This document shows, one piece after another, positions 1-17,876 of a stretch of DNA of 18,098 nt. The first letter of the stretch is position 1, and each line of letters starts with the position of its first letter. Under the pieces are notes generated by a model, which was given only the letters and a program-made list of their open reading frames with translations, had not been told where the DNA came from and searched no databases. A program made the position numbers and the translations under genes. Source of the DNA: Spirochaetia bacterium (lineage in GTDB: Bacteria > Spirochaetota > Spirochaetia > DSM-27196 > PWMO01); the NCBI GenBank assembly GCA_041686235.1, contig JAWLED010000059.1:1-18098 (forward strand), given 5' to 3'.

Positions 1-1
1 G

Positions 2-373
2 GAGGAAACGCGGGAAGCGTATGCCGCCGGCTATGCCGGTGTTGCTTTGAAGACCTGCAAGACGCAGACCGCAGCAATCTTGAGCGCGTGTTGGGCGCGC
101 GAAAACGGCATGCAGGTGTCGGTGCAGGATCTCACGAATCCTATGTTGGCGCAAATACCACATGTGTTACTTGCCGCCCACTTCTCGCCGGAGCTCGGCG
201 TGGAAAGCAATTCCATGCAGTTCTGCCCCGAAGCCTCTCGGGCGGAGGCACGGGTTCATCCATATCTCTATGACCGCCGAGACGGCATGCTCTGTCTCTC
301 GACCATAGGCGGTCCCGGTTTTGGATATCGGATCGAAGAGATCCGTAGGGAGCTTCCCGAGTGTGTTGCATGA
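2..373 (+). CDS. 3' end of an upstream gene (open from the window edge); hypothetical protein
   Basis: The frame is open from position 2 to TGA at 371-373 with no in-frame stop. Third-position G/C enrichment is consistent with coding. I recognise no motif. The gene ends 31 nt before the next gene start. Confidence 0.35.
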   Translation, partial: EETREAYAAGYAGVALKTCKTQTAAILSACWARENGMQVSVQDLTNPMLAQIPHVLLAAHFSPELGVESNSMQFCPEASRAEARVHPYLYDRRDGMLCLSTIGGPGFGYRIEEIRRELPECVA

Positions 374-404
374 GAGCGAACCTTCGCAGGAGGTTAGATA
401 TCCG

Positions 405-1295
405 ATGTACCTAACGGGCATAACCGACGAAGCGGCAGACAGCATCGAAGAGCAAATCGCGGTGTGTAAACACCTCGGCTGGCGGTGGATCGACCTTCGC
501 ACCGTCGACGGCACTAATGTCACCAACCTCAGCGATGCTCGGTTCGACCATTTGCTCGGGCAGCTCGACGATGCGGGGGTCCGGGTAAGCAGTTTCTGCG
601 GGGCCATCGCAAACTGGGGGCGCCGCATCGACGACCCTTTTGAAGTCGACCTCGAAGAGCTGAACCGCGCTATTCCGCGCATGCACCGTGCGGGTACCAC
701 GTATCTGCGAATAATGAGCTATCGGCCGGAGCCGGGCGCTGAGGCCGGAAAATGGAGCGACGCCGAGATCGAAAAAGAGGTTATCAGACGCGTGCGCGAG
801 ATTACTCGGCGGGCCGAAGACGGCGGAATAGTGTGCCTTCACGAAAACTGCGATACGTGGGGCGGACAGAGTTTCGAGCACACGTTGCGACTCTTGGACG
901 AGATCGACTCGAGCGCGTTTTCCCTTGTTTTCGATACGGGGAACCCGGTAGAAACCCTCGACAAACGCGCCGGTGCCTCGGGCCGATATCAAGATGCATA
1001 CGAGTTCTATAAAGCGGTTCGCGAGCATATCAGCTACGTGCACATCAAGGATGGGTATCGAGACGGCGAACAAACGATATACACCCAGCCCGGAGATGGG
1101 CACGCACGAATTGCGGAAATCCTGCGCGATCTACATCGACGAGGCTACGACGGGGGGGTGTCTATCGAGCCTCACGTTGCCGTGGTCCACCACGATCCTT
1201 CGGTAACCGCCGACGAGCAGGTCCGCCGGGATGCGTTTGTGGAGTACGCTCGCCGCACCAAGCGCTTGCTCGAGCAAGCGGGGTACGGAGGTTGA
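405..1295 (+). CDS. Sugar phosphate isomerase/epimerase, xylose-isomerase-like TIM barrel (IolE/IolI-like fold)
   Basis: The ORF 321..1295 begins with TTG; an internal ATG at 405 lies 11 nt after an AGGAGG box (388-393). The translation has a typical TIM-barrel AP-endonuclease/xylose-isomerase-like pattern (HIKD, metal-ligand E/D/H spacing, ~297 aa). Confidence 0.8.
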   Translation: MYLTGITDEAADSIEEQIAVCKHLGWRWIDLRTVDGTNVTNLSDARFDHLLGQLDDAGVRVSSFCGAIANWGRRIDDPFEVDLEELNRAIPRMHRAGTTYLRIMSYRPEPGAEAGKWSDAEIEKEVIRRVREITRRAEDGGIVCLHENCDTWGGQSFEHTLRLLDEIDSSAFSLVFDTGNPVETLDKRAGASGRYQDAYEFYKAVREHISYVHIKDGYRDGEQTIYTQPGDGHARIAEILRDLHRRGYDGGVSIEPHVAVVHHDPSVTADEQVRRDAFVEYARRTKRLLEQAGYGG

Positions 1296-1398
1296 AGCAG
1301 GATAGGTCGTTTAGAAAAGGGAACTTCGCGCGCCGCCTGCCGTGCGGTATGCTCGGACGGCGGTAGCGATTGAAGAAAAATCGTAGGGAGGTGTAGTT

Positions 1399-2424
1399 AT
1401 GAAGAAGGCACTAGTGCTCGTTCTTGCACTGATGCTCATCGCCGGAGCGGCGTTTGCTTCGGGCGAGGCCGAAGAGGAAGGGTACGAATGGCAACCTGAT
1501 CGGCCGATAAACCTGATCGTCCCGTGGGACGCGGGTGGCTCGACCGACCGTTCGGCACGGACGACCGCGGGAATCGTCGAAGAAGAGCTTGGCACGAGTA
1601 TTGTCATCGTCAACCAGGCCGGAGCCTCCGGCTCGGTCGGAACCCAAGAGGCCCTGAATGCCGAAAAAGACGGGCTGACCTGGACGGCCGGCGCGGTGAA
1701 AGACCTCGGGGTCTATAAGGTTCAGGGATTGCTGGACACGACCCTCGACGATTGGCATCTGTATCTCAACGTAGCAATGCCGAATGTGGTCTCGGTAAAC
1801 CCCGACACGCCGTACGAGGATTTCGGTGATCTCCTTGATGCGTTCGAGGAAAATCCCGGAGAGATCCCCGTTGCGACGGCCGGAGAAAACTCCGCGGGAC
1901 ACACCGCAATGGAGCTCATTAAGAGCTATACCGACATTGAATATCGTCATGTCACCTACGACGGCGGAAACCCCGCTGTTGTGGCGACGGTAGGCGGCGA
2001 GACCGATGTCGTGCCTCAACTGTCGGTTGAACAAGTGGATATGATTCGAAGCGGCGATCTTCGCCCGCTCGCAGTTCTTGCGGACAAGCCGCTCGAGATT
2101 TCCGGTTACGATGAGCCGATCCCGCCCATCACCGATTGGGTAGAGGATTTCCAGGCGGCACCGATCTATTTCGGCATTTTCGTGCCGAAGGGCGTACCTG
2201 ATGAGGTAGTTAACACGCTCGATCAGATCTGGGAAGATGTCGTTATGGATTCCGACGAGCTTCGCGAGTGGGCCGCCGAAAACGCGGTCGTCTTTGACCC
2301 GGTTTACGGCGAAGAGGCGTTCGAAAAATCCTTCCCGATGGTCCAAATCGATGCATGGCTCAAGTGGGACTCCGGCGATGCTGAGGTTGAACCGTCGGAA
2401 GTTGATATCCCGAGACCCGAATAA
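1399..2424 (+). CDS. tctC: Tripartite tricarboxylate transporter substrate-binding protein (TctC/Bug family), secreted
   Basis: GGGAGG lies 8 nt upstream of the ATG. The N-terminus is a signal peptide (MKKALVLVLALMLIAGAAFA). The PWDAGGSTD motif is characteristic of the TctC/Bug periplasmic binding fold; length is ~341 aa. Confidence 0.85.
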   Translation: MKKALVLVLALMLIAGAAFASGEAEEEGYEWQPDRPINLIVPWDAGGSTDRSARTTAGIVEEELGTSIVIVNQAGASGSVGTQEALNAEKDGLTWTAGAVKDLGVYKVQGLLDTTLDDWHLYLNVAMPNVVSVNPDTPYEDFGDLLDAFEENPGEIPVATAGENSAGHTAMELIKSYTDIEYRHVTYDGGNPAVVATVGGETDVVPQLSVEQVDMIRSGDLRPLAVLADKPLEISGYDEPIPPITDWVEDFQAAPIYFGIFVPKGVPDEVVNTLDQIWEDVVMDSDELREWAAENAVVFDPVYGEEAFEKSFPMVQIDAWLKWDSGDAEVEPSEVDIPRPE

Positions 2425-2444
2425 CGTGCAATTGTTATAACTCC

Positions 2445-2474
2445 GCGGCGCTCGGTTTTCTCTCCGGGCGCCGC
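2445..2474 (+). promoter_or_regulatory. GC-rich intercistronic stem-loop between tctC and tctB (11-bp stem with one G.U, 8-nt loop), no U-tract
   Basis: 5' arm gcggcgctcgg (2445-2455) pairs with 3' arm ccgggcgccgc (2464-2474); the loop is ttttctct. It is followed by an AGAGG RBS for tctB rather than a U-run. The placement is typical of an mRNA stabiliser or partial attenuator that gives the binding protein higher expression than the permeases. Confidence 0.4.
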
Positions 2475-2493
2475 TCTGCGTAAGAGGTAAGGC

Positions 2494-3027
2494 ATGACCG
2501 AGACAAAGGAGAAACGACGGCCTGAAATGCCGAAGGCCGACTTCGTTACTTCACTGGTGTTGCTTGCATTCAGTGTTGCAGTCGTTCTGTTATCCACGAG
2601 ACTACCGCGACTCGAGCATCGAGACATAAACCAATGGACGATACCGGGGCTGGTTCCGGGGCTCATCGGGACCATAATCGGGATAATGGCCATCGTGCTC
2701 CTGTTGCGCTCTCTCAGATACGGAGGGCATCACCTCGGATTGACACGACGGCGCCTACGCTCGTTTACCGAGATGACGCAGGTACGGCGGGCGGGGGCAA
2801 CCCTGGTAATCTCTCTCTTTTATGCGCTGGTGCTCATCGGTCTCGTGCCCTATGCGGTGGGGACGTTTTTGTTCGTGTTTCTCTTCATTCTTCTTTTCAC
2901 CTATGAAAGAAGTGTCCCGATACGTGAACAGCGCAAAAAGGTACTGGTGGCTGCAGTGGAAGCGGTGATCGTTTCGGCGGCCGTTGCTTCACTATTTCAG
3001 TACGTATTTCTGGTACGCTTGCCATAA
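2494..3027 (+). CDS. tctB: Tripartite tricarboxylate transporter small membrane subunit TctB
   Basis: 177 aa, four hydrophobic helices, AGAGG RBS. It sits between tctC and tctA, the canonical position of tctB. Confidence 0.7.
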   Translation: MTETKEKRRPEMPKADFVTSLVLLAFSVAVVLLSTRLPRLEHRDINQWTIPGLVPGLIGTIIGIMAIVLLLRSLRYGGHHLGLTRRRLRSFTEMTQVRRAGATLVISLFYALVLIGLVPYAVGTFLFVFLFILLFTYERSVPIREQRKKVLVAAVEAVIVSAAVASLFQYVFLVRLP

Positions 3028-3041
3028 AGGAAGTATAGAGT

Positions 3042-4604
3042 ATGTTGGAAGGCCTGGGATACTTTTTCGACGCGATAATAGAGTTTGCGACCCTAGGAAC
3101 CATATTCAATGTGCTGTGGGCGACCCAATTGGGAATCATCGTTGGGATGCTGCCCGGGCTCACCGCAACGATGGGCATTGCCCTCATGACCACGTTGACG
3201 TTCAAACTGCCCCCGAACGATGCCGTGCTTATCCTCGTGTGCATGTACATCGGGGCGATCTACGGAGGCGGGCGCAGCGCAATACTGCTGAACATACCCG
3301 GAACTCCGGCGAATGCAGCTACGGCGGTCGACGGCAACCCCCTCGCACGCCAGGGAAAGGCAGGGCAGGCAATCGGGATTGCCACCACCGGATCATTCAT
3401 CGGGTCGATCATCGGGATGCTTCTCTTGGCCACGATCACCCCGGCGCTCGGCAATTTTGCACTGCGTTTCCAATCGTTCGAGTTTTTCTGGCTTGCCGTA
3501 TTCGGCGTCGTCATCAGCGGAAACCTCACTGCCCCGAAAGACCCGCTCAAGGGGTGGATGGCCGGATTCCTCGGCTTGTTCGTTGCCATGATCGGCATGG
3601 AAAGCATACATGCGGTCGTGCGCTTCTCGTTTGGACAGGTTCAACTCTCCGGCGGGGTAAACCTGATTCCGGCGATGGTCGGAGCATTCGGCTTCTCGGA
3701 AGTCATCATGATGATGAAATACAAACGGGTAGACGTCATCCAAAGCGAGATAGCCAAGGTGCTTCCGAAACCAAGAGATGTGTATCGGCACTGGAAAACC
3801 ATATTTCGTTCCGGTGTAATCGGCACCTTTGTCGGTGCGGTACCCGGAGTGGGAGAGGATATCGGCGCGTGGGTCAGCTATGACTTCGCTCGTCGTGCAA
3901 GCAAGCATCCCGAAGAGTACGGACACGGTAGCTACGAGGGCATGATTTCGGCGGAAATAGGAAACAACGCGGCCGTCGCCGGCGCGATGATTCCCGTGTT
4001 ATCGCTTGCAATTCCCGGTTCTGCCCCGGCGGCGGTTCTACTGGCCGCCATGTTCATCCACGGTGTGAGACCGGGACCGATGATCATGACGGAAAACCCG
4101 AGTTTCGTATTCACCGTTGTTGCGATGGTGTTTTTGGCCACCTGCGCCATGTTTGTTCTGGGGCTCAGTATGGTCAAGGGGCTTGTAAAAGTCCTTCAGG
4201 TACCGAGAGACAAACTCATGCCCATTGTGTTTGTTCTGTGCGTAATCGGCTCGTTCGCGGTTCAGCAGCGTCTCTTCGACGTGTGGGTCATGGTAGCTTT
4301 CGGCGTCCTCGGATATCTCATGAAAGAAATGGACTACCCGGTTGCGCCGATGGTACTGGGCATCATTCTCGGAGACATTCTCGATCCGAATCTGCGCCGG
4401 TCGCTCGTTGTAACGGACGGCAACTTGCTTCCGTTCTTTACACGTCCGATTTCCGGAGTATTGGTGGCGCTGATTGTGTTCACTATGATAAGCAGATCGC
4501 ACTGGTTTATCGCGATAAGACGCAGTGCATTCGCCGGTGTCCGCTCAGTGTTTGTCCGATCACGGAGCGGTGATCGAGACGATGGTCCTGAAAATCGCAG
4601 CTAA
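3042..4604 (+). CDS. tctA: Tripartite tricarboxylate transporter large permease TctA
   Basis: 520-aa polytopic membrane protein. The start lies 14 nt after the tctB stop. The translation shows the TctA-family repeated-half architecture with Gly-rich helices. Confidence 0.85.
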   Translation: MLEGLGYFFDAIIEFATLGTIFNVLWATQLGIIVGMLPGLTATMGIALMTTLTFKLPPNDAVLILVCMYIGAIYGGGRSAILLNIPGTPANAATAVDGNPLARQGKAGQAIGIATTGSFIGSIIGMLLLATITPALGNFALRFQSFEFFWLAVFGVVISGNLTAPKDPLKGWMAGFLGLFVAMIGMESIHAVVRFSFGQVQLSGGVNLIPAMVGAFGFSEVIMMMKYKRVDVIQSEIAKVLPKPRDVYRHWKTIFRSGVIGTFVGAVPGVGEDIGAWVSYDFARRASKHPEEYGHGSYEGMISAEIGNNAAVAGAMIPVLSLAIPGSAPAAVLLAAMFIHGVRPGPMIMTENPSFVFTVVAMVFLATCAMFVLGLSMVKGLVKVLQVPRDKLMPIVFVLCVIGSFAVQQRLFDVWVMVAFGVLGYLMKEMDYPVAPMVLGIILGDILDPNLRRSLVVTDGNLLPFFTRPISGVLVALIVFTMISRSHWFIAIRRSAFAGVRSVFVRSRSGDRDDGPENRS

Positions 4605-4615
4605 GGAGCATGGAA

Positions 4616-5797
4616 ATGGCACAAAGGAAAATTCGTGCGGGTATCGTCGGATCGGGCTTCTCCGCCCGTTTTCACGTAGAAGCGCTCGAGCGCGTTTACA
4701 GTACCAACGTCGAGCTCGTAGGCGTATACTCTCCAACATCCGAACATAAGCAACAATTTGCCGACGCCCACGGCATAACCGCTTTCTCAACGCTCGAAGA
4801 GCTTGTCCAGGCGGTCAACGTGGTGCACGTGTGCACCCCTCCCGCGACCCATGAGCCGGTCGCGGTTGCCGCTCTCGAGGCCGGGCGATGCGTCATTATC
4901 GAAAAACCCTTTACCGGATACTTCGGCGACGGGAGCAAAGGTTTCTCCGGTGACACGTTTCCCCGCGAACACGGACTTTCCGGCGCACTTTCCTCAATCG
5001 AACGCCTGAGACAGGCAGAAGAGCGCTCAGACGGCATGATCTTGTATGCAGAAAACTGGGTCTATGCGCCGGCCGTACAGAAGGAACGGGAAATCATCGA
5101 AAAGACCGGCGCACAGCTGCTGTGGATGCACGGAGAGGAAGCCCATTCGGGCTCCCACTCGAAGTACTACGGCATTTGGGCCCACTCCGGTGGCGGGGCG
5201 ATCATGGGGAAGGGTGTGCATCCGCTCGGTGCGGCGCTCTATTTGAAGAAAGTGGAAGGACGGATGCGCGGAGGCGGTCCGATCCGGCCCAAGAGCGTCA
5301 GCGCCCATACGCACGCGGTCACGCGCGCGTCCAATTACGAGGATGCAGGATTTCTCCGCACCGGCTATACCGATATCGAGGATTTCGGCCACGTACATGT
5401 CGTCTTCGAGGACGGCACGTTTGCCGACATATTTGCCTCAGAGTTAGTACATGGGGGCGTGCACAATTGGATCGAGGTTAATGCCAACAATCATCGCACC
5501 ATCTGTAATATCAATCCCAATACCGCAATGCAGACCTATAACCCGAGCGAATCACAATTCGACGATATCTACGTAGTGGAGAAAACCGGCACAAAACAGG
5601 GGTGGGCGTTTACCTCGCCGGATGAGGACTGGTTTACCGGCTATCAGCATGAGATGGAGGCATTCTATCGCAATGTTGCAGAGGGCTCACAACCCGAGTC
5701 CGACGGGCGCCTTGCCGGAGACATTATCGCAGTGGTATATGCCGCCTACCTTTCTGCAGAGAAGCAAGGTCAAGCAGTAGACGTACCGCAGGTGTGA
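4616..5797 (+). CDS. Gfo/Idh/MocA family NAD(P)-dependent oxidoreductase
   Basis: The N-terminal Rossmann motif IRAGIVGSGFSARFH and the EKP motif (IIEKPF) are typical of Gfo/Idh/MocA. AAGGAG at 4603-4608 is 7 nt from the ATG at 4616; the ATG at 4610 is too close to the SD. Length is ~393 aa. Confidence 0.8.
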   Translation: MAQRKIRAGIVGSGFSARFHVEALERVYSTNVELVGVYSPTSEHKQQFADAHGITAFSTLEELVQAVNVVHVCTPPATHEPVAVAALEAGRCVIIEKPFTGYFGDGSKGFSGDTFPREHGLSGALSSIERLRQAEERSDGMILYAENWVYAPAVQKEREIIEKTGAQLLWMHGEEAHSGSHSKYYGIWAHSGGGAIMGKGVHPLGAALYLKKVEGRMRGGGPIRPKSVSAHTHAVTRASNYEDAGFLRTGYTDIEDFGHVHVVFEDGTFADIFASELVHGGVHNWIEVNANNHRTICNINPNTAMQTYNPSESQFDDIYVVEKTGTKQGWAFTSPDEDWFTGYQHEMEAFYRNVAEGSQPESDGRLAGDIIAVVYAAYLSAEKQGQAVDVPQV

Positions 5798-6702
5798 CAA
5801 GCTCGAATCTGTCTGCGCTGAAACGCTATTCAACCCCGGCCGTTGCGCCGGTGCTCTGGGGCGGCGCGCTCGTAGCCGGACGCGTCGTCTCAGCCGACCT
5901 TCCACCTATCACGATCACATGGGTACGGTTCGTGCTCGTGGGCCTACTCTTAGTACCAGTATTGTGGATACGCGAAGGACGGTTCCCGCGACCTCGGCGA
6001 ACGGATCTTGTGGCGCTCGTGCTTCTCAGCCTCACGGGCGTGGTCGTATTCAATCTGCTTTTGTTCTCTGGACTACAAACGGTAACTGCGGTGAGAAGTT
6101 CCGTTATCATTGCGCTCGGCCCGTCGGTCGTGGCGTTGTTATTGGTGGTGTTTTTTCACGAACGGGCGGAACGGAATACGGTTTTCGGCATTGCGGTGGC
6201 CTTTGCCGGAGCGGTGGTTACGATTACCAATGGCCGGCCGACTCACATATTGGCCGGTGGTATTTCGGTGGGAGATGCCTATCTCCTCGGGTGTGTGTTC
6301 TCATGGGCGATATACACGATCATCGCCCGCTACGCGATTCGCAACCTCTCATCTCTGTCGGTACTTACCTATTCCTCGATACTCGGTGCCGCAATGCTGA
6401 CTCCGGTTGCCGTGCGCGCTGATATCGCGGCGGAAGTTGCCGGGGCTACGCCACAGGCGTGGGTGGCGCTTGCGTATCTCGTGTTTGGAGCGGCAGGGTT
6501 TGCCTATCTCATGTATTATGAGGGTATCCGCCTGGTAGGCCCAAATCGGGCAGCAGTCTTCTTGAATTTAGAGCCGGTTTCTGCTATCTTTTTAGGCGTC
6601 GTGTTGCTGGGAGAGGCCCTGACGCCGCCGGTACTCATTGGTGCGGCATTGGTTATTTTGGGACTCTACCTGGTCAACCGACGGAAAGCGGCGAGTTCGT
6701 AA
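5794..6702 (+). CDS. EamA/DMT-superfamily permease (10-TM drug/metabolite transporter)
   Basis: A GTG start overlaps the oxidoreductase stop (GTGA, 4-nt overlap). The protein is 302 aa with two EamA-like 5-TM halves. The exact start is uncertain. Confidence 0.65.
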   Translation: MTSSNLSALKRYSTPAVAPVLWGGALVAGRVVSADLPPITITWVRFVLVGLLLVPVLWIREGRFPRPRRTDLVALVLLSLTGVVVFNLLLFSGLQTVTAVRSSVIIALGPSVVALLLVVFFHERAERNTVFGIAVAFAGAVVTITNGRPTHILAGGISVGDAYLLGCVFSWAIYTIIARYAIRNLSSLSVLTYSSILGAAMLTPVAVRADIAAEVAGATPQAWVALAYLVFGAAGFAYLMYYEGIRLVGPNRAAVFLNLEPVSAIFLGVVLLGEALTPPVLIGAALVILGLYLVNRRKAASS

Positions 6703-6734
6703 AGCAGCTGGACGACTGTCTATGTCCAGCTCTT

Positions 6735-6792
6735 AAAAAAGGGCGGGCGCGGCCCCACCGTAGCAGATAGAGCGGCGCGCCCGTCTCTCGTT
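6735..6792. terminator. Candidate bidirectional intrinsic terminator between the convergent EamA gene (+) and the sORF (-)
   Basis: An all-G/C 8-bp stem, cgggcgcg (6744-6751) with cgcgcccg (6776-6783). On the minus-strand RNA it is followed by ccc + UUUUUU (plus-strand A-run 6735-6740). On the plus strand it is followed by a U-rich tctctcgtt. The loop is long (24 nt), so confidence is modest. Confidence 0.35.
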
Positions 6793-6845
6793 ACCTGTTG
6801 GCGACCGTCACTCGAGGCGTGTTGAGCACGGTCACCGGCCCGCTG

Positions 6846-6974
6846 TTACATTTCCTGTTCTTGCTCGAGTTCCTGACCCTCTTCAGGGAGCTCACTCTCG
6901 TCGATGGGCTCACAACCCATAAGAGCAACACCAAACAACAGCGGAACAATAAGAAACAACGCTAGCTTTTTCAT
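6846..6974 (-). CDS. Unannotated small lipoprotein (42 aa): signal peptide + lipobox + 22-aa highly acidic mature peptide
   Basis: My reverse-complement translation gives MKKLALFLIVPLLFGVALMGCEPIDESELPEEGQELEQEQEM, ending at a TAA stop. A strong SD (GGGAGGAGG, plus 6981-6989) sits 6 nt before the ATG. The n-region (MKK), hydrophobic h-region and L-M-G-C lipobox fit PROSITE-type lipoprotein rules. It is below the 61-aa cutoff of the ORF track. Confidence 0.55.
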   Translation of the reverse strand: MKKLALFLIVPLLFGVALMGCEPIDESELPEEGQELEQEQEM

Positions 6975-7196
6975 AACGGTCCTCCTCCCGTTTAGTTGAT
7001 ATCTTTAATCTAACCGACGCGTGCAAAGGGCGTGTCCACGTATCATGAAGTGTTTGTGAAGCTCGCTGTGCTCGTGGACGACGGTTTCCGGCCCTCCCCA
7101 CACGCCCCGGGCCGGTGTCTCCCGGCGTGACGGCACCTTCTTTTAACAGCTCGTTGATATTGCTTAACGTTTCGCCGACAGAATCTTAACAATCCC

Positions 7197-7226
7197 TTGA
7201 CAAACCCGGTCTTGTGGCCTCATTTT
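7197..7226 (+). promoter_or_regulatory. Putative sigma70-type promoter for the aminopeptidase gene (perfect -35 TTGACA, weak -10 cATttT after 18 nt)
   Basis: TTGACA is at 7197-7202 and CATTTT at 7221-7226. The ATG at 7248 lies ~15-20 nt downstream of the predicted TSS. The TTG that the ORF track used as a start is this -35 box. Confidence 0.25.
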
Positions 7227-7247
7227 AGAAACCGGCAGGGTGTTGGA

Positions 7248-8333
7248 ATGAGACCCTATAGGTCGAGCGTTACAGTAATTCTCGCTGCATTGATCCTCGC
7301 GGGTGCGTTTTATGCACTCGACGGGGGGTATTTGGTTCGGCAAGGCATCGGCTACTTCCACACGGTCATACTTGCCCGCGACTTCGACACACTTCGTGCT
7401 CAAGAAGATCTTGATAAACCTACCGAGCACCTCTTAGAACGCGTTGAAGAAATCCGCAGGTTTGCGCACGAAGAGCTCGGACTGAGAAAAACCGAAAACT
7501 TCACACGATACAGCGAGGTTAATCGAGACTATTTGGTTACCGTGGTTTCGGTTGTGCGGGACGACCGAATGCAACGCGGGACGTGGAATTATCCCGTCGT
7601 TGGTGAGCTTTTCTATCGAGGTTACTACAATAGCTCTCAGGCACAGCGGGTAGCGGCGCGCCTCGAAGCACAGAATTACGACGTGCTCATCCGCGAGGTC
7701 GACGCCTTCAGCAGCCTCGGGTACTTCCCTGATCCGGTCTACAGTTTCATGTCCGACTATAGCGACTACCGTTTGGCAAACCTCATCATCCATGAGGAAA
7801 TGCACTCCACCCTCTGGCTCGAGGGGCAAAATGCGTTCAATGAAGAGATCGCGACGTTCGTCGGCGACGAGGGTGCTGCAGAGTTCGTACGGCAGAAGCA
7901 TGGGGTAGAATCTCCGGAGTATCAATCGATTGCCAAGGGGAGCGCGGATCGAAAAACATACCGGCGACTCATGACCGAGTTGCATGAGAAGTTATCCGCG
8001 GCCTACCAACGGCTCGAAACGCGAGCGGAGCGCCTCGAAGCCAAAGAACGAATCTTCGAAGAGTTCCAAGATAGGATCGCCGCCAATTACGACACCCTGT
8101 TTCGCACCGACCGCTATCGCGGTATCACCAACCTTCCGCCCGACAATGCCCGCGTAGACGCAAGCTATAAGTATGGCGGTGACCTCTCGTTGTACTACGA
8201 GCTCTATGAGGAAGTTGATCGCGACCTCAGTGAAGTCATCGATATGCTGCGTAACAGCGGAGCACGCCCCGACGCCCCGCGCGATGCCCTCAGATCGCTC
8301 CTCGAAGAGGATTCCTCGGTCGGCGACACGTAA
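7248..8333 (+). CDS. Putative zinc-dependent aminopeptidase (DUF2265/'predicted aminopeptidase'-like), N-terminal signal/anchor, HEXXH motif
   Basis: The internal ATG at 7248 begins MRPYRSSVTVILAALILAGAFYAL, a hydrophobic signal peptide or anchor. A HEXXH zinc motif, IIHEEMHSTLW, is present. The overall length is ~360 aa. The family assignment is from memory, not a search. Confidence 0.55.
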   Translation: MRPYRSSVTVILAALILAGAFYALDGGYLVRQGIGYFHTVILARDFDTLRAQEDLDKPTEHLLERVEEIRRFAHEELGLRKTENFTRYSEVNRDYLVTVVSVVRDDRMQRGTWNYPVVGELFYRGYYNSSQAQRVAARLEAQNYDVLIREVDAFSSLGYFPDPVYSFMSDYSDYRLANLIIHEEMHSTLWLEGQNAFNEEIATFVGDEGAAEFVRQKHGVESPEYQSIAKGSADRKTYRRLMTELHEKLSAAYQRLETRAERLEAKERIFEEFQDRIAANYDTLFRTDRYRGITNLPPDNARVDASYKYGGDLSLYYELYEEVDRDLSEVIDMLRNSGARPDAPRDALRSLLEEDSSVGDT

Positions 8334-8377
8334 CACTCGCTGCGATACGCGACGTCACTATCCGAGCAGCTACCGTC

Positions 8378-10246
8378 TTACGCGAGCGATTCGAGCTCTT
8401 CCCACCACTGGTAGGCGTCGGAAATCTCGCGCTCGAGCTCGTCAAGCCGCTCGGTAAGCTCCCGCACCGTCGAGCCGTCGGCCTCCGTGTCGCGGTAGAG
8501 GGCAGGGTCGGAGAGTTTGCGATGAATCTGCTCCTGTTCGGCCTCCAACTCTGCGATTCGGTCCGGCAGTAGCTCGAGCTCGCGACGCTCTTTGAATCCG
8601 AGTTTGCGCGGTTGCTCGGCGCGTCGCTGTCGGTTTGTTTTGCCGCTTGTTTTGCTGCCGGCCTTCTCGCTCGTGGACTCTCGGCGGCCGGCGTGCTGTC
8701 GGCGCTCACGCTCACGTTCGCGCCAATCGGTGTATCCGCCGGAGTATTCGACGACCTGAGCATCTCCGCTCAGTACGAGGCACTCCGTAACCACGTTATC
8801 GAGAAACTCACGGTCGTGGCTCACGAGAATGATCGTCCCATCGTAGTCGATCAGAAGCTGCTCGAGCAGCTCGAGTGTTTCGGTGTCGAGGTCGTTGGTC
8901 GGCTCATCGAGGACCAAAACGTTCGACGGGCGCGCAAAGAGCTTTGCCAGCAGTAACCGGTTGGTCTCTCCGCCGGAAATGCCCTTCGCAGGCTTTTTCA
9001 TATCTTCTTCACTGAAGAGAAACTCTTTGAGATATCCGGCAAGATGACGCTCGCGGCCGGCGTAGCGTACCCGATCGTAGCCGCCGCCGACGTTCTCGTA
9101 GATCGATGCCTCGGGATCGATACGTGCCCGCATTTGGTCGAAGTAGACGACCTCGAGCCCGGTGCCGTGCCGGACCGTCCCTGCATCCGGCGACAATTCT
9201 TTGAGCAGTAGGCGAACGAGGGTGGTCTTGCCGCTGCCGTTTGGGCCCACGATACCCACGCGGTCGCCGCGCTCGATCATGGTCGAAAGCCCCGATATGA
9301 TCGACGTTTCCCCGTAGCCGAAGCTGAGCTCTTCGGTCTCGATCACCATATCACCCGAGCGCTCTGCGTTCTCGATCGACATCCGTGCGGTTTCCGGACG
9401 CTCCCGCCGCTGTCGATGCTCCTCGCGCATCTGCTCTAAGCGCCGCACGCGGCCCTCATTGCGGGTCTGACGGGCCTTTATGCCTTTGCGAATCCAGGCT
9501 TCCTCTGCGGCAAGTTTCTCATCGAATTTGCGTCGCTCCTCCTCTTCCTGTTCGAGTTGCTGTTGGCGCCGGCGGACGAACTCGTCGTAGCCGGCATCAA
9601 AACTGTAGAGCTTACCGCGGTCGAGCTCGGCGACTCGAGTGGTTAGCCGTCGTGCCAGGGCGCGGTCGTGGGTAACCAACAACAAGGCGCGCTTCTCGAC
9701 GTTCGACAATCGGAGGAGATAGTCTTCGAGCCATAGGACGGTGTCGATGTCGAGGTGGTTCGTCGGCTCGTCGAGAAGGACCGCATCCGCTCCGGCGGCA
9801 AGGGTGCGGGCGAGCAGTACCCGACGCAGCACTCCGCCGGATGCCGTTGAGAGCTCCGTGTCCGCCCCGACCCCGAGGCGGGTGAGAAACTGCTCGGCTT
9901 CGAGACGTCTGTGAGCGAGCGTCTCGTGGTCTTCGTCCGGACCGGCGTCGAGCGCGGCGTCGATCGCCGATCCGCTCCATCCGTGGGGAATCTGCTGATC
10001 GAGGTACGCAAGCCGTGCCCCCGCCTGAACGCTCACCCGGCCCTCGTCGGGAGTCAGTTTCCCGGCCGCAATTCGCAGGAGGGTGGATTTGCCCGCGCCG
10101 TTTCTGCCCACCAGACTGATCCGCTCACCAGGCTGCACGTGCAGCGAGACGTGGTCGAGAACAGGGTCCCCGCCGAAGTTGTAGTACACATCGTGAAAGC
10201 CAAGAAGCGCCACGGCCGCACGGTAGCACAACCGGCGCCGCCGCAT
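8378..10246 (-). CDS. uup: ABC-F family twin-ATPase (Uup-like) with C-terminal basic/coiled-coil domain
   Basis: There are two complete ABC cassettes (Walker A GRNGAGKST and GPNGSGKTT; signature LSGG-like motifs; Walker B LLDEPTNHLD and LVLDEPTNDLD). A charged inter-domain linker is rich in E/R/K. The C-terminal Arg/Lys-rich segment plus coiled coil is typical of Uup. There are no TM segments. The exact start is uncertain (ATG 10246 or GTG 10213). Confidence 0.85.
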   Translation of the reverse strand: MRRRRLCYRAAVALLGFHDVYYNFGGDPVLDHVSLHVQPGERISLVGRNGAGKSTLLRIAAGKLTPDEGRVSVQAGARLAYLDQQIPHGWSGSAIDAALDAGPDEDHETLAHRRLEAEQFLTRLGVGADTELSTASGGVLRRVLLARTLAAGADAVLLDEPTNHLDIDTVLWLEDYLLRLSNVEKRALLLVTHDRALARRLTTRVAELDRGKLYSFDAGYDEFVRRRQQQLEQEEEERRKFDEKLAAEEAWIRKGIKARQTRNEGRVRRLEQMREEHRQRRERPETARMSIENAERSGDMVIETEELSFGYGETSIISGLSTMIERGDRVGIVGPNGSGKTTLVRLLLKELSPDAGTVRHGTGLEVVYFDQMRARIDPEASIYENVGGGYDRVRYAGRERHLAGYLKEFLFSEEDMKKPAKGISGGETNRLLLAKLFARPSNVLVLDEPTNDLDTETLELLEQLLIDYDGTIILVSHDREFLDNVVTECLVLSGDAQVVEYSGGYTDWRERERERRQHAGRRESTSEKAGSKTSGKTNRQRRAEQPRKLGFKERRELELLPDRIAELEAEQEQIHRKLSDPALYRDTEADGSTVRELTERLDELEREISDAYQWWEELESLA

Positions 10247-10285
10247 CTACGCACCATCGTATACGCACCGCCATTAATATGCCTC

Positions 10286-10313
10286 GTGACGAGATCCGGC
10301 AGAGTACGGTATA
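10286..10313 (+). promoter_or_regulatory. Putative promoter for the small OMP gene: -35 GTGACG, 16-nt spacer, perfect -10 TATAAT (10308-10313)
   Basis: The TATAAT hexamer lies 37 nt upstream of the ATG at 10350. The alternative ATG at 10314 sits inside this element and is therefore unlikely to be the start. Confidence 0.35.
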
Positions 10314-10349
10314 ATGTGTAGAGACGACACGGAGGCGTTACGGAGCCTA

Positions 10350-11072
10350 ATGAAGCTCACAAAGATATCAATAATCGCCCCGGTTCTCGGGGTTTTTCTT
10401 CTGCTCTCGGCTGTCCAGACACCGGCACAGACCTCGTACGTCGGGGTCAAAGGCGGGATTTTCGCCGGCTTCTACGGAGGCGAGGACTGGAAAGATACGA
10501 TTTCCGAGATCGACGGCCAAACCGGTGTTAGTGCCGAGAACGCCTTTAGAGCGGGGTTTGCACTGTCAGGCCTCGTGGAAATCGGGGTGAGCCGTACGTT
10601 CTCGATCCAACCGGAAATCGGATACGCGCGGCGAAGCGGCGGAGTGGTGACGGAAGAAGACGACAGCGACAATGAGCAGCAAAGCCTCTTCATGTACGAT
10701 CTCATTGAGATTCCCCTATTCTTGAAACCCCACGGGAGAATAGGAGATCACCTGACTCTCTACGGTTTGTTAGGTCCTAGGGTGAGTTTTCTTTTTGGGG
10801 ACGTGACCGCCAGAGGTAGGGAAGAAACCGACAACGACACGACGACCACGACTTCTGAAAGAACACCGGATAATACGGTCTTATTTGGTGGCTCCGTGGG
10901 CGCGGGGCTCGCCGGCGATGTCAACGGCGCGCGCATTCTGTTCGAAGCGCTATACTCACGGCACTTCAACTCCGCTTTTGAAGAAGTGGACCTCTTAGGT
11001 CAAAACGAGACAACGAAACGACCGATCCTCAACAGCATCGGCCTGTGGCTCGGAGTAGACTTCCCCATCTAG
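10350..11072 (+). CDS. Small outer-membrane beta-barrel protein (OmpA-N/OmpW-like 8-strand barrel family), secreted
   Basis: The signal peptide is MKLTKISIIAPVLGVFLLLSAVQTPAQT. Alternating hydrophobic/aromatic beta-strand patterns are present (YVGVKGG, FALSGLVEIGV, FSIQPEIGYA, LFGGSVGAGLA, ILFEALYSR), with a low-complexity D/T-rich surface loop. GGAGG/ACGGAG boxes lie upstream. Confidence 0.6.
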   Translation: MKLTKISIIAPVLGVFLLLSAVQTPAQTSYVGVKGGIFAGFYGGEDWKDTISEIDGQTGVSAENAFRAGFALSGLVEIGVSRTFSIQPEIGYARRSGGVVTEEDDSDNEQQSLFMYDLIEIPLFLKPHGRIGDHLTLYGLLGPRVSFLFGDVTARGREETDNDTTTTTSERTPDNTVLFGGSVGAGLAGDVNGARILFEALYSRHFNSAFEEVDLLGQNETTKRPILNSIGLWLGVDFPI

Positions 11073-12256
11073 AACGAGTAGGTAAATCCGGTGCTCAGCG
11101 TGGCCGCTCCCGAGCGCTCCCACGCGAAAACGTTCGTGTTGTCTCCGCTCTGCACGCCGGCAAACGCCACCAATTCAAATCCGCCGAATACATTCCAACT
11201 CACCCCGGTGCTCATGTAAGCCGAGAGATCGATCGGTGACACAATCGAGCGCAGCACAACGGATACCGTACGCCCGGGGCTCAGAACGAGCTCCGGGTAT
11301 AGGGTGAGCCCGTACTCGCCCTGGGGGTCATTCTTGTCCTCCCACGCGCCCCCCGGGCGGATGAGCGCCTCGAGTCGAGCGTCGAGGTCTACCTCGCGGC
11401 CGAGAGTGAAGCGGTTGTAGGCTCCGAGGCTGAAGGTCGCTCGTTCGTCCACCGCATCTCCGTCGGCATCGCCCCCGATATCGCCGTCTATCGAGAGCCG
11501 CCCCGCGCCGTAGACGTCCACGCCTATGAGCCCGACGACGGTGAGGACCGTTTCGTGGCGCCCGCTTGTGCCGTCATACAGGTAGGCCGGCTCGAGCGTG
11601 AAATTCCCGAGCTCGAAGCTCAGACGCCCACCCGCTCGGCTACTGCTGAGCTCAGAGGGCTCATCCCCGGAGCCGGTCGACGGGCTTCCCTCGGTCGGGA
11701 GGTCGGGGAGGATAATGGGCTCGAAGTATGAGAACGAGCCGAGCGGAACATACACCGCGCTCAACCACGTGGTTTCATTACGCAGGTCGTCCGATATCTC
11801 GAAAAAGTCGGCCGCGCCGGTTCCGTCCGCGCCAAAAATGACGTCGGCGGCGTTGAACAGACGCCCCATACCCCACGAAACGCGGTCGCGCCCGGAGGTC
11901 ACACGCACCGTGTAGTCCTCGGTCAGCGGAAACCGGAAGCGTATAGAGGCACGGGGGACGGTTACCGTGGCCGCTTGCTCGGTATCCCCGGTGTTCGAGC
12001 CGGTGGTCTCGCCAAGAACGGCATCGAGTGTGAGGCGAGCCTGAACGTTGCGGTCACGCTCGGAGCGGAGGTCGAGTTCCCCGCGGCCATAGCCGAGCAA
12101 TCCGAGCTCGTCCTTGGCGCCGTTCCATGCGAGGGTGTTTAGCGTCTCGATTTCCCCGTCGATCCGCGCCTGGGCGGCAAGCGGGAGCGGGGCGATGGTA
12201 CACAAAACCGCCACTATCGCGCACCACAGAGCCGGTCCGCCGCGTGCGCCTACCAT
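11069..12256 (-). CDS. Outer-membrane beta-barrel protein (395 aa), last gene of the minus-strand operon
   Basis: GGAGG is 7 nt before the ATG. The signal peptide ends at AAQA. The sequence is dominated by alternating hydrophobic strands with G/D-rich turns and ends with the OMP C-terminal signature ...STGFTYSF (terminal Phe). The start overlaps the upstream LolA_like gene by 7 nt. Confidence 0.6.
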   Translation of the reverse strand: MVGARGGPALWCAIVAVLCTIAPLPLAAQARIDGEIETLNTLAWNGAKDELGLLGYGRGELDLRSERDRNVQARLTLDAVLGETTGSNTGDTEQAATVTVPRASIRFRFPLTEDYTVRVTSGRDRVSWGMGRLFNAADVIFGADGTGAADFFEISDDLRNETTWLSAVYVPLGSFSYFEPIILPDLPTEGSPSTGSGDEPSELSSSRAGGRLSFELGNFTLEPAYLYDGTSGRHETVLTVVGLIGVDVYGAGRLSIDGDIGGDADGDAVDERATFSLGAYNRFTLGREVDLDARLEALIRPGGAWEDKNDPQGEYGLTLYPELVLSPGRTVSVVLRSIVSPIDLSAYMSTGVSWNVFGGFELVAFAGVQSGDNTNVFAWERSGAATLSTGFTYSF

Positions 12257-13116
12257 GAGAGCTCCTCCAGCGAAAAAATATTCGAGGGAAGATCAACCCC
12301 GATTTCCACACTTTCGAGGATCATGTCCGTGCTGCTCGACCTGCGGGTCGTGTCGTCGATGCGCAGGTGTATCGGGAAGTGGTAGCCGTTCCGACGTGTG
12401 GTCTCGAGGACGCTGATCTCTTTCAACTGCCGTCCGCTGCGCGCGTACTGCTCGCTTTTGAGGAGCACGAAGTCCTCGGCATCGACATAATAGACTTGCC
12501 GTGGATACGCTACATTGGTGCCGCGCGCCTCGAGCTCGATCTTATACGCGTTGCGCCCCTGGATTTGTTCTTCACCTTGGAGATTCACCCGATAATCATC
12601 GAGTAGCCCCCGCCCCCCGGTCATATCTTCGTAGGAGAGATCCGATCCCAGAAGCGAGTCACGCAACGCCGAGCCCTGCAACCGGATTACTTCCCGCGCA
12701 TCGGGGTAATAGAGATACAGATTATCGTCGCGGCGAAGGATCCGCTGGCCGTCTTCGTCGCGCGAGGTAAACTCTACGAGAAATCGATCTTCGCCTTCGC
12801 TGTGCATGATAAACGTGCTTGTGCGCTCACCGAAGCGGTCGTTTATCACCATGCGCCCCTCGACAATGCTCGTGGGGTGTGTTTGGTTCTCCTCCATCCG
12901 CTCGATAATATCTTCGCCCGTCATCTCCTCGGCGGGCAGACTGAGCGGTGCGAGGAGCACGAAAGCGGCAAGGGCGGGGAGGGCGGCCACCATTCGCCGC
13001 CGAGTGCCGGCCGTGCGGCGGGCGGCTCGGCGCTCGCCGGCACGGTGGTCGCCCGTGCGGCGGGCGGCGGCCCGCATTACGCAGATTCGTGTTCTCATAC
13101 GTGAAACTTTTCTCAT
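12250..13116 (-). CDS. LolA_like 'outer-membrane lipoprotein-sorting protein' family protein (distant LolA/LppX fold), exported
   Basis: AAGGAG is 7 nt before the ATG at 13116, immediately after the permease stop. The hydrophobic export segment is MVAALPALAAFVLLAPLSLPA. The mature part carries the SDLSYEDM motif (GSDF/LSYEDM is the family hallmark) and the typical ~230-aa core. It starts with an unusual Arg-rich 41-aa N-terminal extension, so the alternative start is M42 at 12993. Confidence 0.6.
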   Translation of the reverse strand: MRKVSRMRTRICVMRAAARRTGDHRAGERRAARRTAGTRRRMVAALPALAAFVLLAPLSLPAEEMTGEDIIERMEENQTHPTSIVEGRMVINDRFGERTSTFIMHSEGEDRFLVEFTSRDEDGQRILRRDDNLYLYYPDAREVIRLQGSALRDSLLGSDLSYEDMTGGRGLLDDYRVNLQGEEQIQGRNAYKIELEARGTNVAYPRQVYYVDAEDFVLLKSEQYARSGRQLKEISVLETTRRNGYHFPIHLRIDDTTRRSSSTDMILESVEIGVDLPSNIFSLEELSW

Positions 13117-13134
13117 ATTCAGTCTCCTTCCCGG

Positions 13135-14361
13135 TTAGTCGCGGAGCGCCTCCACCGGCTTCAACTTCGCCGCCCGTCGGGCGGGGAAAAATGAGGCAAA
13201 CATCGCAATCGCCGACGAGTAGACGAACACCACCACTGTCGAGCGCAGATTCAACACCGGATACAGTACCGTCGACATCTCCATGTTTGCCTGTTCCATT
13301 GCCTGGCCGAAATCGATGCCGAGGCGTTGCAACGGCAGCGTAGCACCGATGCCGAGCACCACTCCCAACAGAGAGCCGGCAAGGCCGAGATAGGCGGCCT
13401 CGATGAAGAACAGGCGAACGAGCTCGCGGTCGTGCATTCCCATTGCCGTGAGGGTACCGATCTCACGGGTGCGCTCGTGAATCGTCATCATCGTGGTGTT
13501 GATCACCACGGTGCTTCCGAGCAAAAAGAAGATGAGCGCGATGATGTTGTAGACGGCGTCCGCCATTTGAAGATACGCGTAGCCGCCGCTGACCTCTGTC
13601 CACGGGGTAACGCTCATCCCCTCGATACCGCTTTCGGAAAGCGCTGATCGAACCGCGGCCTCGACCGCGCTCAGCTCGCCGGTGTCACTTTTCACGAGCA
13701 CCTCGGTTGCCGCATCGCCCATACGCGCGTAACGCGACGCGGTGTCAATCGGAAGTATAAAGGTGTTGTCGTTCAACCCGGCCATGGGAAACACGGCAAG
13801 GCCCACCACGTCGACGCTGAAACCGTTCGACCTTCGGTTTCGCGTGCGGGTAAGGAAGGTGGCCATATCTCCGATTCCGACATCCAGCTCCTCGGCAAGC
13901 CCGGTTCCGAGGATTGCCTCCCTCGTTCCCGGCTGGGGAAGTCTCCCCTCGGCAACAATTGTATCGAGCTCTTGATACCTCTGCTCGAGCTGGAGATCGA
14001 GTCCTATTCCGTTGGCTGCGATATGCTGCTCGCCGCGAAAGGCCGCACCGGCAATCTTGATCCGGGGGCTCACCGCCGAGACGGCCGAGCGCTCTGAGAG
14101 GCGATCGACGAGGCGCTCGTAGTCGGGAACCACGTAATGAACCGGGTTGAGGTGCTCGTATCGATCAAAATCGGCATTGCGAATACGGATCTCTCCGGTC
14201 TCGTAGTTCCAGGCGTTATGGCGAACGTCAACCTTGATACCTTCGAAAATCGAGAAGAGCATGGTGATGGCGAACGCGGCGATTGCGATGGCGATTATCG
14301 AAAGGAGGCTTCGCCTTCCGTTTCGGAACACGTTACGGAGTGCTATGGACGCGATCTTCAT
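13135..14361 (-). CDS. FtsX-family ABC permease with large periplasmic domain (MacB/LolC/LolE type), copy 2
   Basis: The start is taken at M61 of the ORF-track translation (ATG 14361; GGGAG SD; 10 nt after the upstream stop). Topology is TM1, then a ~230-aa periplasmic domain, then 3 C-terminal TMs, i.e. the MacB/Lol architecture. The longer ORF-track start would overlap the upstream gene. Confidence 0.8.
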   Translation of the reverse strand: MKIASIALRNVFRNGRRSLLSIIAIAIAAFAITMLFSIFEGIKVDVRHNAWNYETGEIRIRNADFDRYEHLNPVHYVVPDYERLVDRLSERSAVSAVSPRIKIAGAAFRGEQHIAANGIGLDLQLEQRYQELDTIVAEGRLPQPGTREAILGTGLAEELDVGIGDMATFLTRTRNRRSNGFSVDVVGLAVFPMAGLNDNTFILPIDTASRYARMGDAATEVLVKSDTGELSAVEAAVRSALSESGIEGMSVTPWTEVSGGYAYLQMADAVYNIIALIFFLLGSTVVINTTMMTIHERTREIGTLTAMGMHDRELVRLFFIEAAYLGLAGSLLGVVLGIGATLPLQRLGIDFGQAMEQANMEMSTVLYPVLNLRSTVVVFVYSSAIAMFASFFPARRAAKLKPVEALRD

Positions 14362-14371
14362 TTGCTCTCCC

Positions 14372-15628: not shown

Positions 15629-15662
15629 TCGCTCCCCTCGTGTACGTCGGCCACCCAGCATC

Positions 15663-17859: not shown

Positions 17860-17876
17860 GTTACCCTCGTTGCTGA

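Follow-up and report, generated by a model that had tools for sequence, protein, structure and literature searches.

The window analysed here comprises positions 1 to 18,098 (18,098 nucleotides, nt) of contig JAWLED010000059.1 from a Spirochaetia bacterium, and our subject is the gene cluster at its left end, which encodes a complete tripartite tricarboxylate transporter (TTT, tctCBA), a xylose-isomerase-like TIM barrel (TIM1), a Gfo/Idh/MocA oxidoreductase (GFO1), an EamA-type permease and the truncated end of an enolase-superfamily protein (ENO). Seen together with its relatives, the cluster is best explained as roughly the last two-thirds of a conserved, probably catabolic operon from a member of the Spirochaetota. 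The features of this region, all on the + strand, are as follows.

2-373, + strand: 3′ end (123 codons) of ENO, an enolase-superfamily gene resembling the muconate-lactonising enzyme (MLE) subgroup, assigned by orthologue identity and cut by the left window edge
405-1295, + strand: TIM1, xylose-isomerase-like TIM barrel (PF01261, 105.6 bits against a cut-off of 31.1)
1399-2424, + strand: TctC, periplasmic substrate-binding protein of the TTT (PF03401, 81.9 bits against 27)
2445-2474, + strand: intercistronic hairpin between tctC and tctB with an 11-bp GC-rich stem
2494-3027, + strand: TctB, small membrane subunit of the TTT (PF07331, 46.8 bits against 29.1)
3042-4604, + strand: TctA, large membrane subunit of the TTT (PF01970 over the full profile, 474.2 bits against 28.9)
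4616-5797, + strand, with an alternative ATG at 4610: GFO1, Gfo/Idh/MocA oxidoreductase (PF01408 at 76 bits, and PF22725)
5794-6702, + strand: permease of the EamA/DMT family (PF00892 twice, 169 bits)

An earlier first-pass annotation, made by a model from the sequence, had listed a TIM barrel, tctCBA, a Gfo/Idh/MocA enzyme and an EamA permease in a single orientation, and the open reading frames (ORFs) and Pfam scans bear out this content. Its count of five genes does not stand, as six are found in 405-6702. The transporter is indeed complete, all three TTT Pfam families being present above their cut-offs in the gene order C-B-A. The spacings that had been quoted are also correct: tctB and tctA are 14 nt apart, GFO1 and the EamA gene share a GTGA overlap, and the gap of 11 nt between tctA and GFO1 holds for the ATG at 4616, which suits the AAGGAG box better than the ATG at 4610 (5 nt). 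Wider gaps separate TIM1 from tctC (103 nt) and tctC from tctB (69 nt), and the ATG of TIM1 has an AGGAGG motif 9 nt upstream.

The hairpin between tctC and tctB has a fold energy of -25.9 kcal/mol and a z-score of -1.7, and no T-run follows its stem. A hairpin behind the binding-protein gene is a common arrangement, and this one may, as an attenuator or by stabilising the mRNA, increase the output of binding protein relative to the membrane subunits. The predicted fold of the 103-nt spacer between TIM1 and tctC is no more stable than that of its shuffled versions (z -0.2), and an Rfam scan of the whole window gave zero matches. The promoter and terminator scan within the operon was uninformative, with 1 promoter-like site against 4.0 expected and terminator-like sites lying mostly inside genes.

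The ENO reading frame leaves the window on the left and stops at 373, 31 nt ahead of TIM1. It is a co-directional seventh gene, and probably the first gene of the operon.

Conservation of the gene order in two phyla

The nearest database proteins are annotated as belonging to metagenome-assembled genomes (MAGs) of Spirochaetota; exact-sequence look-ups gave no match for TIM1, and for TctA and TctC only same-species MAG contigs of 3-4 kb. In a series of spirochaete loci (L005, L006/7, L009, L012, L023, L090 and L099), whose TIM1 proteins are 50-70% identical to that of the window, a divergently transcribed ROK gene is followed by ENO-TIM1-tctC-tctB-tctA-GFO1. L013 and L014 contain the same genes, but with ENO beyond the ROK gene, and the layouts of L010 and L011 end at the contig end. 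On the 276-kb contig of L090, the seven genes are placed between a Na/Pi cotransporter gene and the Phe-tRNA synthetase genes, and with such flanks the module is self-contained there.

The ROK protein matches NagC (232 bits) and Mlc over the full length, including the N-terminal helix-turn-helix, and is for this reason a regulator rather than a kinase. Inside the window, neither a TctD/TctE pair nor any other regulator is present within or beside the block, and no response regulator or histidine kinase is encoded; the sole regulator, encoded at 17458-17859 in a separate operon of the opposite strand, is of the GntR type. The statement of the first-pass annotation that no TctDE pair or other regulator is visible is therefore right for the window. 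As a property of the cluster it fails, since the relatives carry the divergent ROK gene beside ENO, upstream of the block, and the absence of a regulator is an artefact of the window edge.

The block TIM1-tctC-tctB-tctA-GFO1 recurs in the same order and on the same strand in MAGs of Desulfobulbaceae and Geobacteraceae, that is, in a second phylum. Loci with TIM1, TctCBA and GFO1 were found in Desulfobulbaceae, in Geobacteraceae and in genomes labelled 'delta proteobacterium' (L025, L027, L036, L044, L047, L048, L068, L079 and L089). The TctC, TctA and GFO1 proteins of these Desulfobacterota loci are 60-73% identical to those of the window; TctA is 69-90% identical in the related loci of the two phyla, and tctB occupies the same position in all of them. 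The flanks are unrelated where they are annotated (L036, L068 and L089), comprising Lon and PolA, an aldehyde:ferredoxin oxidoreductase with a CP-ATP-grasp protein, and an ADP-forming acetyl-CoA synthetase. In three further loci (L038, L066 and L084) TIM1 and the TTT occur in another arrangement, with tctCBA on the opposite strand.

Among 80 loci with a TIM1 homologue from species-representative genomes, tctC/tctA lie alongside in 17, and 14 also have a GFO1 orthologue (at least 55% identity). When the TIM1 homologue is at least 50% identical and at least 5 kb of downstream sequence is available, the full block is present in 5 of 7 loci. The identical order in two phyla with differing flanks makes TIM1-tctCBA-GFO1 a functional module rather than a chance adjacency, and these counts rule out the latter as well. 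The probability that the genes are neighbours by chance, or merely through the shared ancestry of close genomes, without a common function, is accordingly very small. In its favour are the facts that all loci are MAG contigs and that GFO1 orthologues occur in several other contexts; against it stand, besides the order and strand kept in two phyla, the re-association of TIM1 and TTT in differing arrangements and the tight spacing or overlap of the genes. The orthologue context thus upholds the earlier view of a conserved uptake-plus-enzyme module.

The same does not apply to the EamA gene, which had been counted as part of the cluster. Apart from the same species (L001), it follows GFO1 in L009 alone, with a protein of 73% identity encoded about 520 nt past GFO1; it was not found at this position in L005, L006, L090 or any Desulfobacterota locus. 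Present only in close relatives, it is a lineage-specific accessory permease outside the conserved module.

In some spirochaetes the operon is longer. L006/L007 and L012 possess one co-directional array, ENO-TIM1-TctCBA-GFO1-SDR-GH88-like-TIM2-GFO2, with gaps of at most 85 nt in L006, and parts of it are seen on the contig fragments L100 and L101. The GH88-like protein (465 aa) has a profile match to the GH88 unsaturated glucuronyl hydrolases with an E-value of 1.6e-13; TIM2 is a second PF01261 barrel and GFO2 a second GFO enzyme. The best NCBIfam matches of TIM2 are IolO, Hyi and OtnI, all weak (E 5e-8 to 1e-6, against cut-offs of at least 300 bits). In L004 and L009, the closest long contigs, the SDR, GH88-like, TIM2 and GFO2 genes are situated beyond ROK on the other strand, and by analogy they probably lie upstream of the present window too. 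Farther upstream of ROK, L006 (1-6736) carries a TRAP DctM gene followed by genes for an Asp/Glu-racemase-like protein (a faint match), a semialdehyde dehydrogenase, DAO, Fer2 and an FAD-oxidoreductase. This set resembles opine or D-hydroxyproline oxidase systems and is probably a separate operon.

Transporter and enzymes

TctC begins with an N-terminal signal peptide. In the Protein Data Bank (PDB) it matches 11 TTT binding proteins at E < 1e-3, the best being 2dvz (BugE, 4e-33) and the second 25hk (Vibrio TTT-C, 8.9e-30). Its loop PWDAGGSTD aligns with PFAPGGSTD of BugE and FGAGGGTD of TTT-C, and the Thr-Asp pair and Pro104 are retained. A loop of this type forms the pincer for the proximal carboxylate, by which TTT binding proteins hold their ligands (PMC5812351); judged from the alignment, TctC retains this putative carboxylate pincer. 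Compared with Vibrio TTT-C, to which the similarity is moderate, the window TctC has F19 replaced by W, G20 by D, G24 by S, S164/E165 by G/N and T225/R227 by I/F. TctC does not share the residues to which PMC13390454 ascribes the specificity of TTT-C. No ligand can be transferred to it.

The metal ligands of TIM1, E147, D177, H213 and E255, are invariant in 37 homologues and align with E152/D185/H211/E246 of D-tagatose 3-epimerase. The AlphaFold2 (AF2) model (pLDDT 93.7) has among its top 50 Foldseek matches the L-xylulose-5-phosphate 3-epimerase UlaE, the isomerase Art22, ketose 3-epimerases, YcjR, AsbF and, at rank 39, IolI, with TM scores of ~0.7 and identities of ~18%; all the close folds enolise a carbon adjacent to a carbonyl. 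TIM1 is therefore modelled as a metal-dependent barrel of the sugar epimerase/isomerase type, its activity being predicted from the fold. This agrees with the first-pass annotation, which had named an AP (apurinic/apyrimidinic) endonuclease class as the outcome that would speak against such a role. Endonuclease IV gives a weak profile match only (E ~1e-4) and the fold neighbours are epimerases and isomerases, so an AP endonuclease was rejected. Rejected likewise was iolE, for which TIM1 scores 21.3 bits against a cut-off of 290. In NCBIfam there are also weak matches to fructoselysine 3-epimerase.

The best 120 homologues of GFO1 are 63-99% identical and come from several phyla. The E96-K97-P98 (EKP) motif is invariant, and the AF2 model (pLDDT 81) superposes on GFO structures at TM ~0.7. 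The nearest folds, at no more than 23% identity, are the aminoglycoside 3′′-dehydrogenases GenD2/KanD2, inositol dehydrogenases, levoglucosan dehydrogenase, WlbA, GnnA, DgpA1 and YjhC, of which WlbA is a uronate-specific UDP-GlcNAcA 3-dehydrogenase. On the basis of the model, GFO1 is predicted to be an NAD(P)-dependent oxidoreductase with the fold of sugar ring-hydroxyl dehydrogenases. The D-x-x-x-H motif is altered throughout the subfamily to GKGVH, where His202 is retained, the Asp position is an invariant Gly198 and an invariant Lys199 follows; this lysine may bind an anionic substrate.

In Bacteroidota, orthologues of GFO1 (64-66% identical) adjoin major facilitator superfamily (MFS) transporters of the ACS family, D-galactonate-transporter subfamily (241-254 bits), so that the same enzyme appears to be served there by another transporter family that is also anion-specific. 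The Pontibacter orthologue also adjoins the gene of a genuine mannonate dehydratase, UxuA (578 bits; cut-off 199.55), and a 3keto-disac_hyd (PF06439) gene is close by. The TIM barrels beside the Bacteroidota orthologues were rejected as TIM1 orthologues, one being 20% identical and the other being UxuA itself. Distant homologues of the cluster enzymes sit with ABC or MFS transporters, in line with the earlier remark that this enzyme pair is usually served by them. The plasmid collection contains only distant homologues (27-40% identity), namely a Microvirga GFO1 homologue in an ABC-sugar-transporter cluster and Rhizobium and Streptomyces TIM1 homologues in apparently biosynthetic clusters.

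Other surroundings of GFO1 orthologues were also observed. A recurrent metagenomic operon (L127, L128, L161, L120, L143 and others) combines a GFO1 orthologue with a sodium:solute symporter (SSF), a beta-hydroxyacid-dehydrogenase-like protein, a URO-D-like protein and a protein of ~588 aa that has no Pfam match; it is a second, uncharacterised home of the GFO1 enzyme family. A gene for the GTP-type phosphoenolpyruvate (PEP) carboxykinase lies within 4 kb of the GFO1 orthologue, usually just upstream, in 20 of 80 loci. In L106, L110 and L111 a prolyl-oligopeptidase-family gene is found upstream and a convergent GH116 gene downstream, and L106 and L111 additionally have a PF01261 barrel with a TAT-like signal downstream of the GFO1 orthologue.

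The ENO fragment gives no Pfam match by itself. In L006, TIM1 is preceded by the gene of a 467-aa protein with an MR_MLE_C domain, and residues 338-453 of this protein share 55% identity with the ENO fragment; with the L009 orthologue the identity is 80%. The window covers only strands beta6 to beta8, where the beta6 lysine (ALKTCK) and the motifs QDLTNP and ESN are found. The full-length orthologues display the complete hallmarks of the superfamily, i.e. KxK on beta2 (LKIKL), Asp on beta3 (DFN), Glu on beta4 (EQP), Asp on beta5 (DES) and Lys on beta6 (LKTCK), and their ligand residues align with those of 3i6e. A single-sequence search of the PDB yielded no matches for ENO, and a family profile was needed; this profile retrieves structures of the MLE subgroup, the best being 3i6e (E 7.6e-9), as well as dipeptide epimerases (3iji, 3ik4, 1jpm and 3rit) and N-acylamino-acid racemases. 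None of the NCBIfam models of characterised isofunctional families matched. By its sequence, ENO is best described as a divergent MLE-like branch of the enolase superfamily that has no solved or curated relative.

Substrate class and proposed route

The substrate is most likely an acidic, carboxylate-bearing sugar. A carboxylate is indicated because TTT binding proteins hold their ligands through this group and because all known enolase-superfamily reactions begin at the carbon alpha to such a group. The ROK regulator and the epimerase- and dehydrogenase-type folds of the enzymes speak for a sugar and not for a simple di- or tricarboxylate. The first-pass annotation had arrived at an acidic carbohydrate-like substrate, and this idea now gains independent support from the ENO partner, the TctC pincer, the MFS and UxuA neighbours, the GH88-like gene and a published precedent. 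The latter is a Vibrio TTT system, described in 2026, which imports unsaturated alginate oligosaccharides and whose binding protein accepts trisaccharides; TTT transport of aldarate and D-glucarate is cited in the same paper (PMC13390454). With this precedent, a TTT serving a sugar-type acid is no longer without parallel.

We propose, with a probability of roughly 0.5, that the operon serves the import of a carboxylate-bearing sugar and its cytoplasmic conversion. TctC would bind the acid in the periplasm through the conserved pincer, and TctBA would import it with an ion gradient as the driving force. GFO1 would interconvert a secondary alcohol and a ketone with NAD(P)(H), and TIM1, with its bound divalent metal, would enolise the position beside this carbonyl to give an isomerised or epimerised substrate. 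In spirochaetes, ENO would then abstract the proton alpha to the carboxylate, and dehydration or ring opening would lead to a 2-keto-3-deoxy acid. The ROK protein would repress the operon until the sugar is present.

The likeliest and most economical specific version, offered by analogy and with low confidence, is an isomerase-reductase(-dehydratase) route that leads from a hexuronate, or from the 4-deoxy-5-hexosulose-uronate (DEH) that lyases set free from acidic polysaccharides, to 2-keto-3-deoxygluconate (KDG). An isomerase-reductase route would account for the transporter, TIM1 and GFO1 as the self-sufficient module of Desulfobacterota. The classical counterparts are the hexuronate isomerase pathway UxaC-UxuB-UxuA and the conversion of DEH to KDG by KduI-KduD. 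These share with the proposed logic the sequence of isomerase, NAD(P)H reductase and dehydratase acting on a C6 acid from an anion-specific transporter, and a true UxuA and an ExuT-like ACS-family MFS transporter are the neighbours of the Bacteroidota GFO1 orthologues. Yet no enzyme is orthologous: TIM1 belongs to PF01261 and is neither UxaC nor the cupin KduI, GFO1 is a Gfo/Idh/MocA protein rather than a member of the mannitol-dehydrogenase family (UxuB) or an SDR (KduD), and ENO is an MLE-like enolase-superfamily protein, not UxuA or ManD. The steps from DEH to KDG are summarised in PMC13390454. Orthologues of UxaC-UxuB-UxuA or KduI-KduD are absent from the window, and UxuA was seen only beside the Pontibacter GFO1 orthologue. 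It is conceivable, albeit rather unlikely, that TIM1, GFO1 and ENO constitute an undescribed three-step route from a uronate-type acid to a 2-keto-3-deoxy acid, non-orthologous at each classical step, fed by a TTT of new specificity and passed between Spirochaetota and Desulfobacterota as one compact unit.

Several observations weigh against the import and conversion of an acidic sugar. ENO, ROK and the GH88-like gene are all missing from the module in Desulfobacterota, whose members do not typically live on sugars. Some lineages (L102-L104) have TctCBA-GFO1 but no TIM1, and orthologues of GFO1 are also met in unlike contexts, either with SSF, HIBADH-like and URO-D-like proteins or with an S9 peptidase and GH116. 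Among solved structures, ENO comes closest to dipeptide epimerases and N-acylamino-acid racemases instead of acid-sugar dehydratases, and the ligand-distal residues of TctC are unlike those of every solved TTT binding protein. The two TIM barrels, two GFO enzymes and the SDR of the extended operon exceed what a uronate-to-KDG route requires, and kdgK/kdgA are not nearby in any annotated locus. No enzyme of the cluster reaches the equivalog cut-off of any characterised NCBIfam family, and hence no activity can be transferred. Finally, all the evidence consists of sequence and gene context from uncultured MAGs. Among the loci that lack TIM1, L102 and L104 continue after tctCBA-GFO1 with a sigma54-dependent PrpR_N/PAS activator and a second, distant TTT system.

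The pairing of GFO1 with TIM1 also brings to mind deglycosylation by oxidation and subsequent elimination, in which the TTT would import a carboxylated glycoside (an unsaturated uronyl disaccharide, a glucuronide or glucosylglycerate), GFO1 would oxidise the C3 hydroxyl of the ring to give the 3-keto sugar, TIM1 would act on the 3-keto-glycoside as a lyase or epimerase, and GFO1 would reduce the product back. YcjS/YcjR of E. coli, LgdA/LgdB (levoglucosan), DgpA/DgpBC and BT2157-2159 likewise combine a Gfo/Idh/MocA dehydrogenase with a PF01261 barrel that acts beside the new carbonyl. The GFO1 fold neighbours GenD2, KanD2, levoglucosan dehydrogenase, GnnA, WlbA and DgpA1 are C3 dehydrogenases, and YcjR, one of the TIM1 fold neighbours, is a 3-keto-glucoside 4-epimerase. 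The PF06439 gene close to the Pontibacter orthologue would fit, the cytoplasmic GH88-like gene in the same operon of L006 and L012 implies an imported glycoside, and the Vibrio binding protein accepts trisaccharides. However, sequence identity to the four systems named is at most 23% and the equivalog scores are far under the cut-off, GFO1 reaching 26.6 against 650 for LevoglcsnDh and 15.5 against 750 for BT_2158_fam. Those systems handle neutral glycosides delivered by ABC, MFS or phosphotransferase (PTS) systems and have no enolase-superfamily or TTT partner. Moreover, the core module has no hydratase partner, the top fold matches of TIM1 are epimerases and not known lyases, and the pocket-enlarging residues of Vibrio TTT-C are not shared (Gly24 is Ser and Thr225 is Ile, while Gly183 is not placeable). 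We regard this explanation as unlikely.

Less probable still is an amino-acid-derived carboxylate, such as a fructosyl-amino acid (Amadori compound), an opine or an N-acyl- or N-glycosyl-amino acid, whose alpha-carbon would be epimerised or racemised by ENO and whose sugar part would be remodelled by TIM1 and GFO1. The solved relatives of ENO point in this direction, as do the best PDB match of TctC, BugE, a glutamate-binding protein, and the weak match of TIM1 to fructoselysine 3-epimerase. All of these similarities are remote and below cut-offs, though, and the module contains no deglycase, kinase, amadoriase or aminotransferase; the accessory genes are of carbohydrate type (the NagC-like ROK, the GH88-like gene and the SDR), and the neighbours of the Bacteroidota orthologues are UxuA and ACS-family MFS transporters. 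As for inositol or inosose catabolism, with the IolG + IolE/IolI core that the first-pass annotation had put forward as one option, iolG is the best NCBIfam match of GFO1, through the Rossmann domain only, TIM1 matches iolE weakly, and IolI is a low-ranking fold neighbour of TIM1. But GFO1 attains only 48.3 bits against 355 for iolG, TIM1 also falls far short of the cut-off for iolE, iolB, iolC, iolD and iolJ were called neither in the window nor in the annotated related loci, and inositols have no carboxylate for the TTT or for the enolase-superfamily partner. TIM1 is nearest to UlaE and the ketose 3-epimerases, and GFO1 to sugar ring-hydroxyl dehydrogenases. The inositol assignment is effectively refuted.

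Returning to the uptake and conversion of an acidic sugar, one of the closest known parallels is the alginate-oligosaccharide TTT of Vibrio sp. C42 (TTT-C, PDB 25HK; PMC13390454), which is likewise a complete tctCBA-type transporter inside a catabolic locus for an acidic carbohydrate, and whose binding protein, the second-closest solved relative of the window TctC, has the Thr-Asp and Pro104 pincer residues in common with it. The Vibrio locus encodes alginate lyases, KdgF, DehR, KdgK, Eda and GntR regulators, whereas a TIM barrel, a GFO enzyme, an enolase-superfamily enzyme and a ROK regulator are the partners here. With the citrate system TctCBA-TctDE of Salmonella and the Bug proteins of Bordetella (PMC5812351), the cluster shares the three components, the order C-B-A and the pincer loop. 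Different from them, it has no TctDE, its relatives have ROK instead, it is joined by sugar-type enzymes where those have none, and its hosts are Spirochaetota and Desulfobacterota rather than Proteobacteria. In acid-sugar pathways of the Hyi/OtnI/IolO type (L-threonate/D-erythronate, and the 5-keto-L-gluconate epimerase of Thermotoga), a PF01261 barrel also acts on a keto-acid sugar together with a dehydrogenase; the weak matches to these families concern TIM2, not TIM1, and here there is no DUF1537 kinase or decarboxylase.

The combination of a TTT, a PF01261 barrel, a Gfo/Idh/MocA enzyme, an MLE-like enolase-superfamily protein and ROK was not found in literature searches. The transporter belongs fully to the TTT family, and the enzymes are superfamily members outside any characterised family. 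The cluster is an uncharacterised variant of a known operon type, with nothing mechanistically startling about it. TTT transporters are abundant, but few substrates are known and the characterised cases are mostly from Proteobacteria; the Spirochaetota/Desulfobacterota module ties a TTT to defined enzyme partners and so provides a concrete ligand hypothesis. It also flags three enzyme subfamilies to which no function has been assigned, i.e. TIM1, GFO1 with Gly-Lys in place of the motif Asp, and the divergent MLE-like branch. Should the substrate derive from a uronate, the module would shed light on the use of acidic-polysaccharide breakdown products by anaerobic bacteria of sediments and soda lakes.

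Other genes of the window

Downstream of the cluster, three genes unrelated to it were called.

7197-8333, + strand: putative aminopeptidase, PF10023
8378-10246, - strand: double-ATPase protein of the ABC-F type
10314-11072, + strand: outer-membrane beta-barrel protein

A 42-aa ORF (6846-6974, - strand), convergent to the EamA gene, combines a lipoprotein-type signal (…LFGVALMGC) with a strongly acidic tail, and is followed by a terminator at 6759-6742 (- strand) consisting of a GC hairpin and a T-run. The right part of the window (11069-17859, - strand), likewise unrelated to the cluster, is a co-directional array composed of the GntR regulator, an SPFH/Band7 protein, an ABC ATPase, two permeases of the FtsX/MacB type, a LolA-like protein and a 395-aa ORF that matches no Pfam family. 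As called, the two permease ORFs overlap by ~170 nt, and one of the starts is probably located further downstream.

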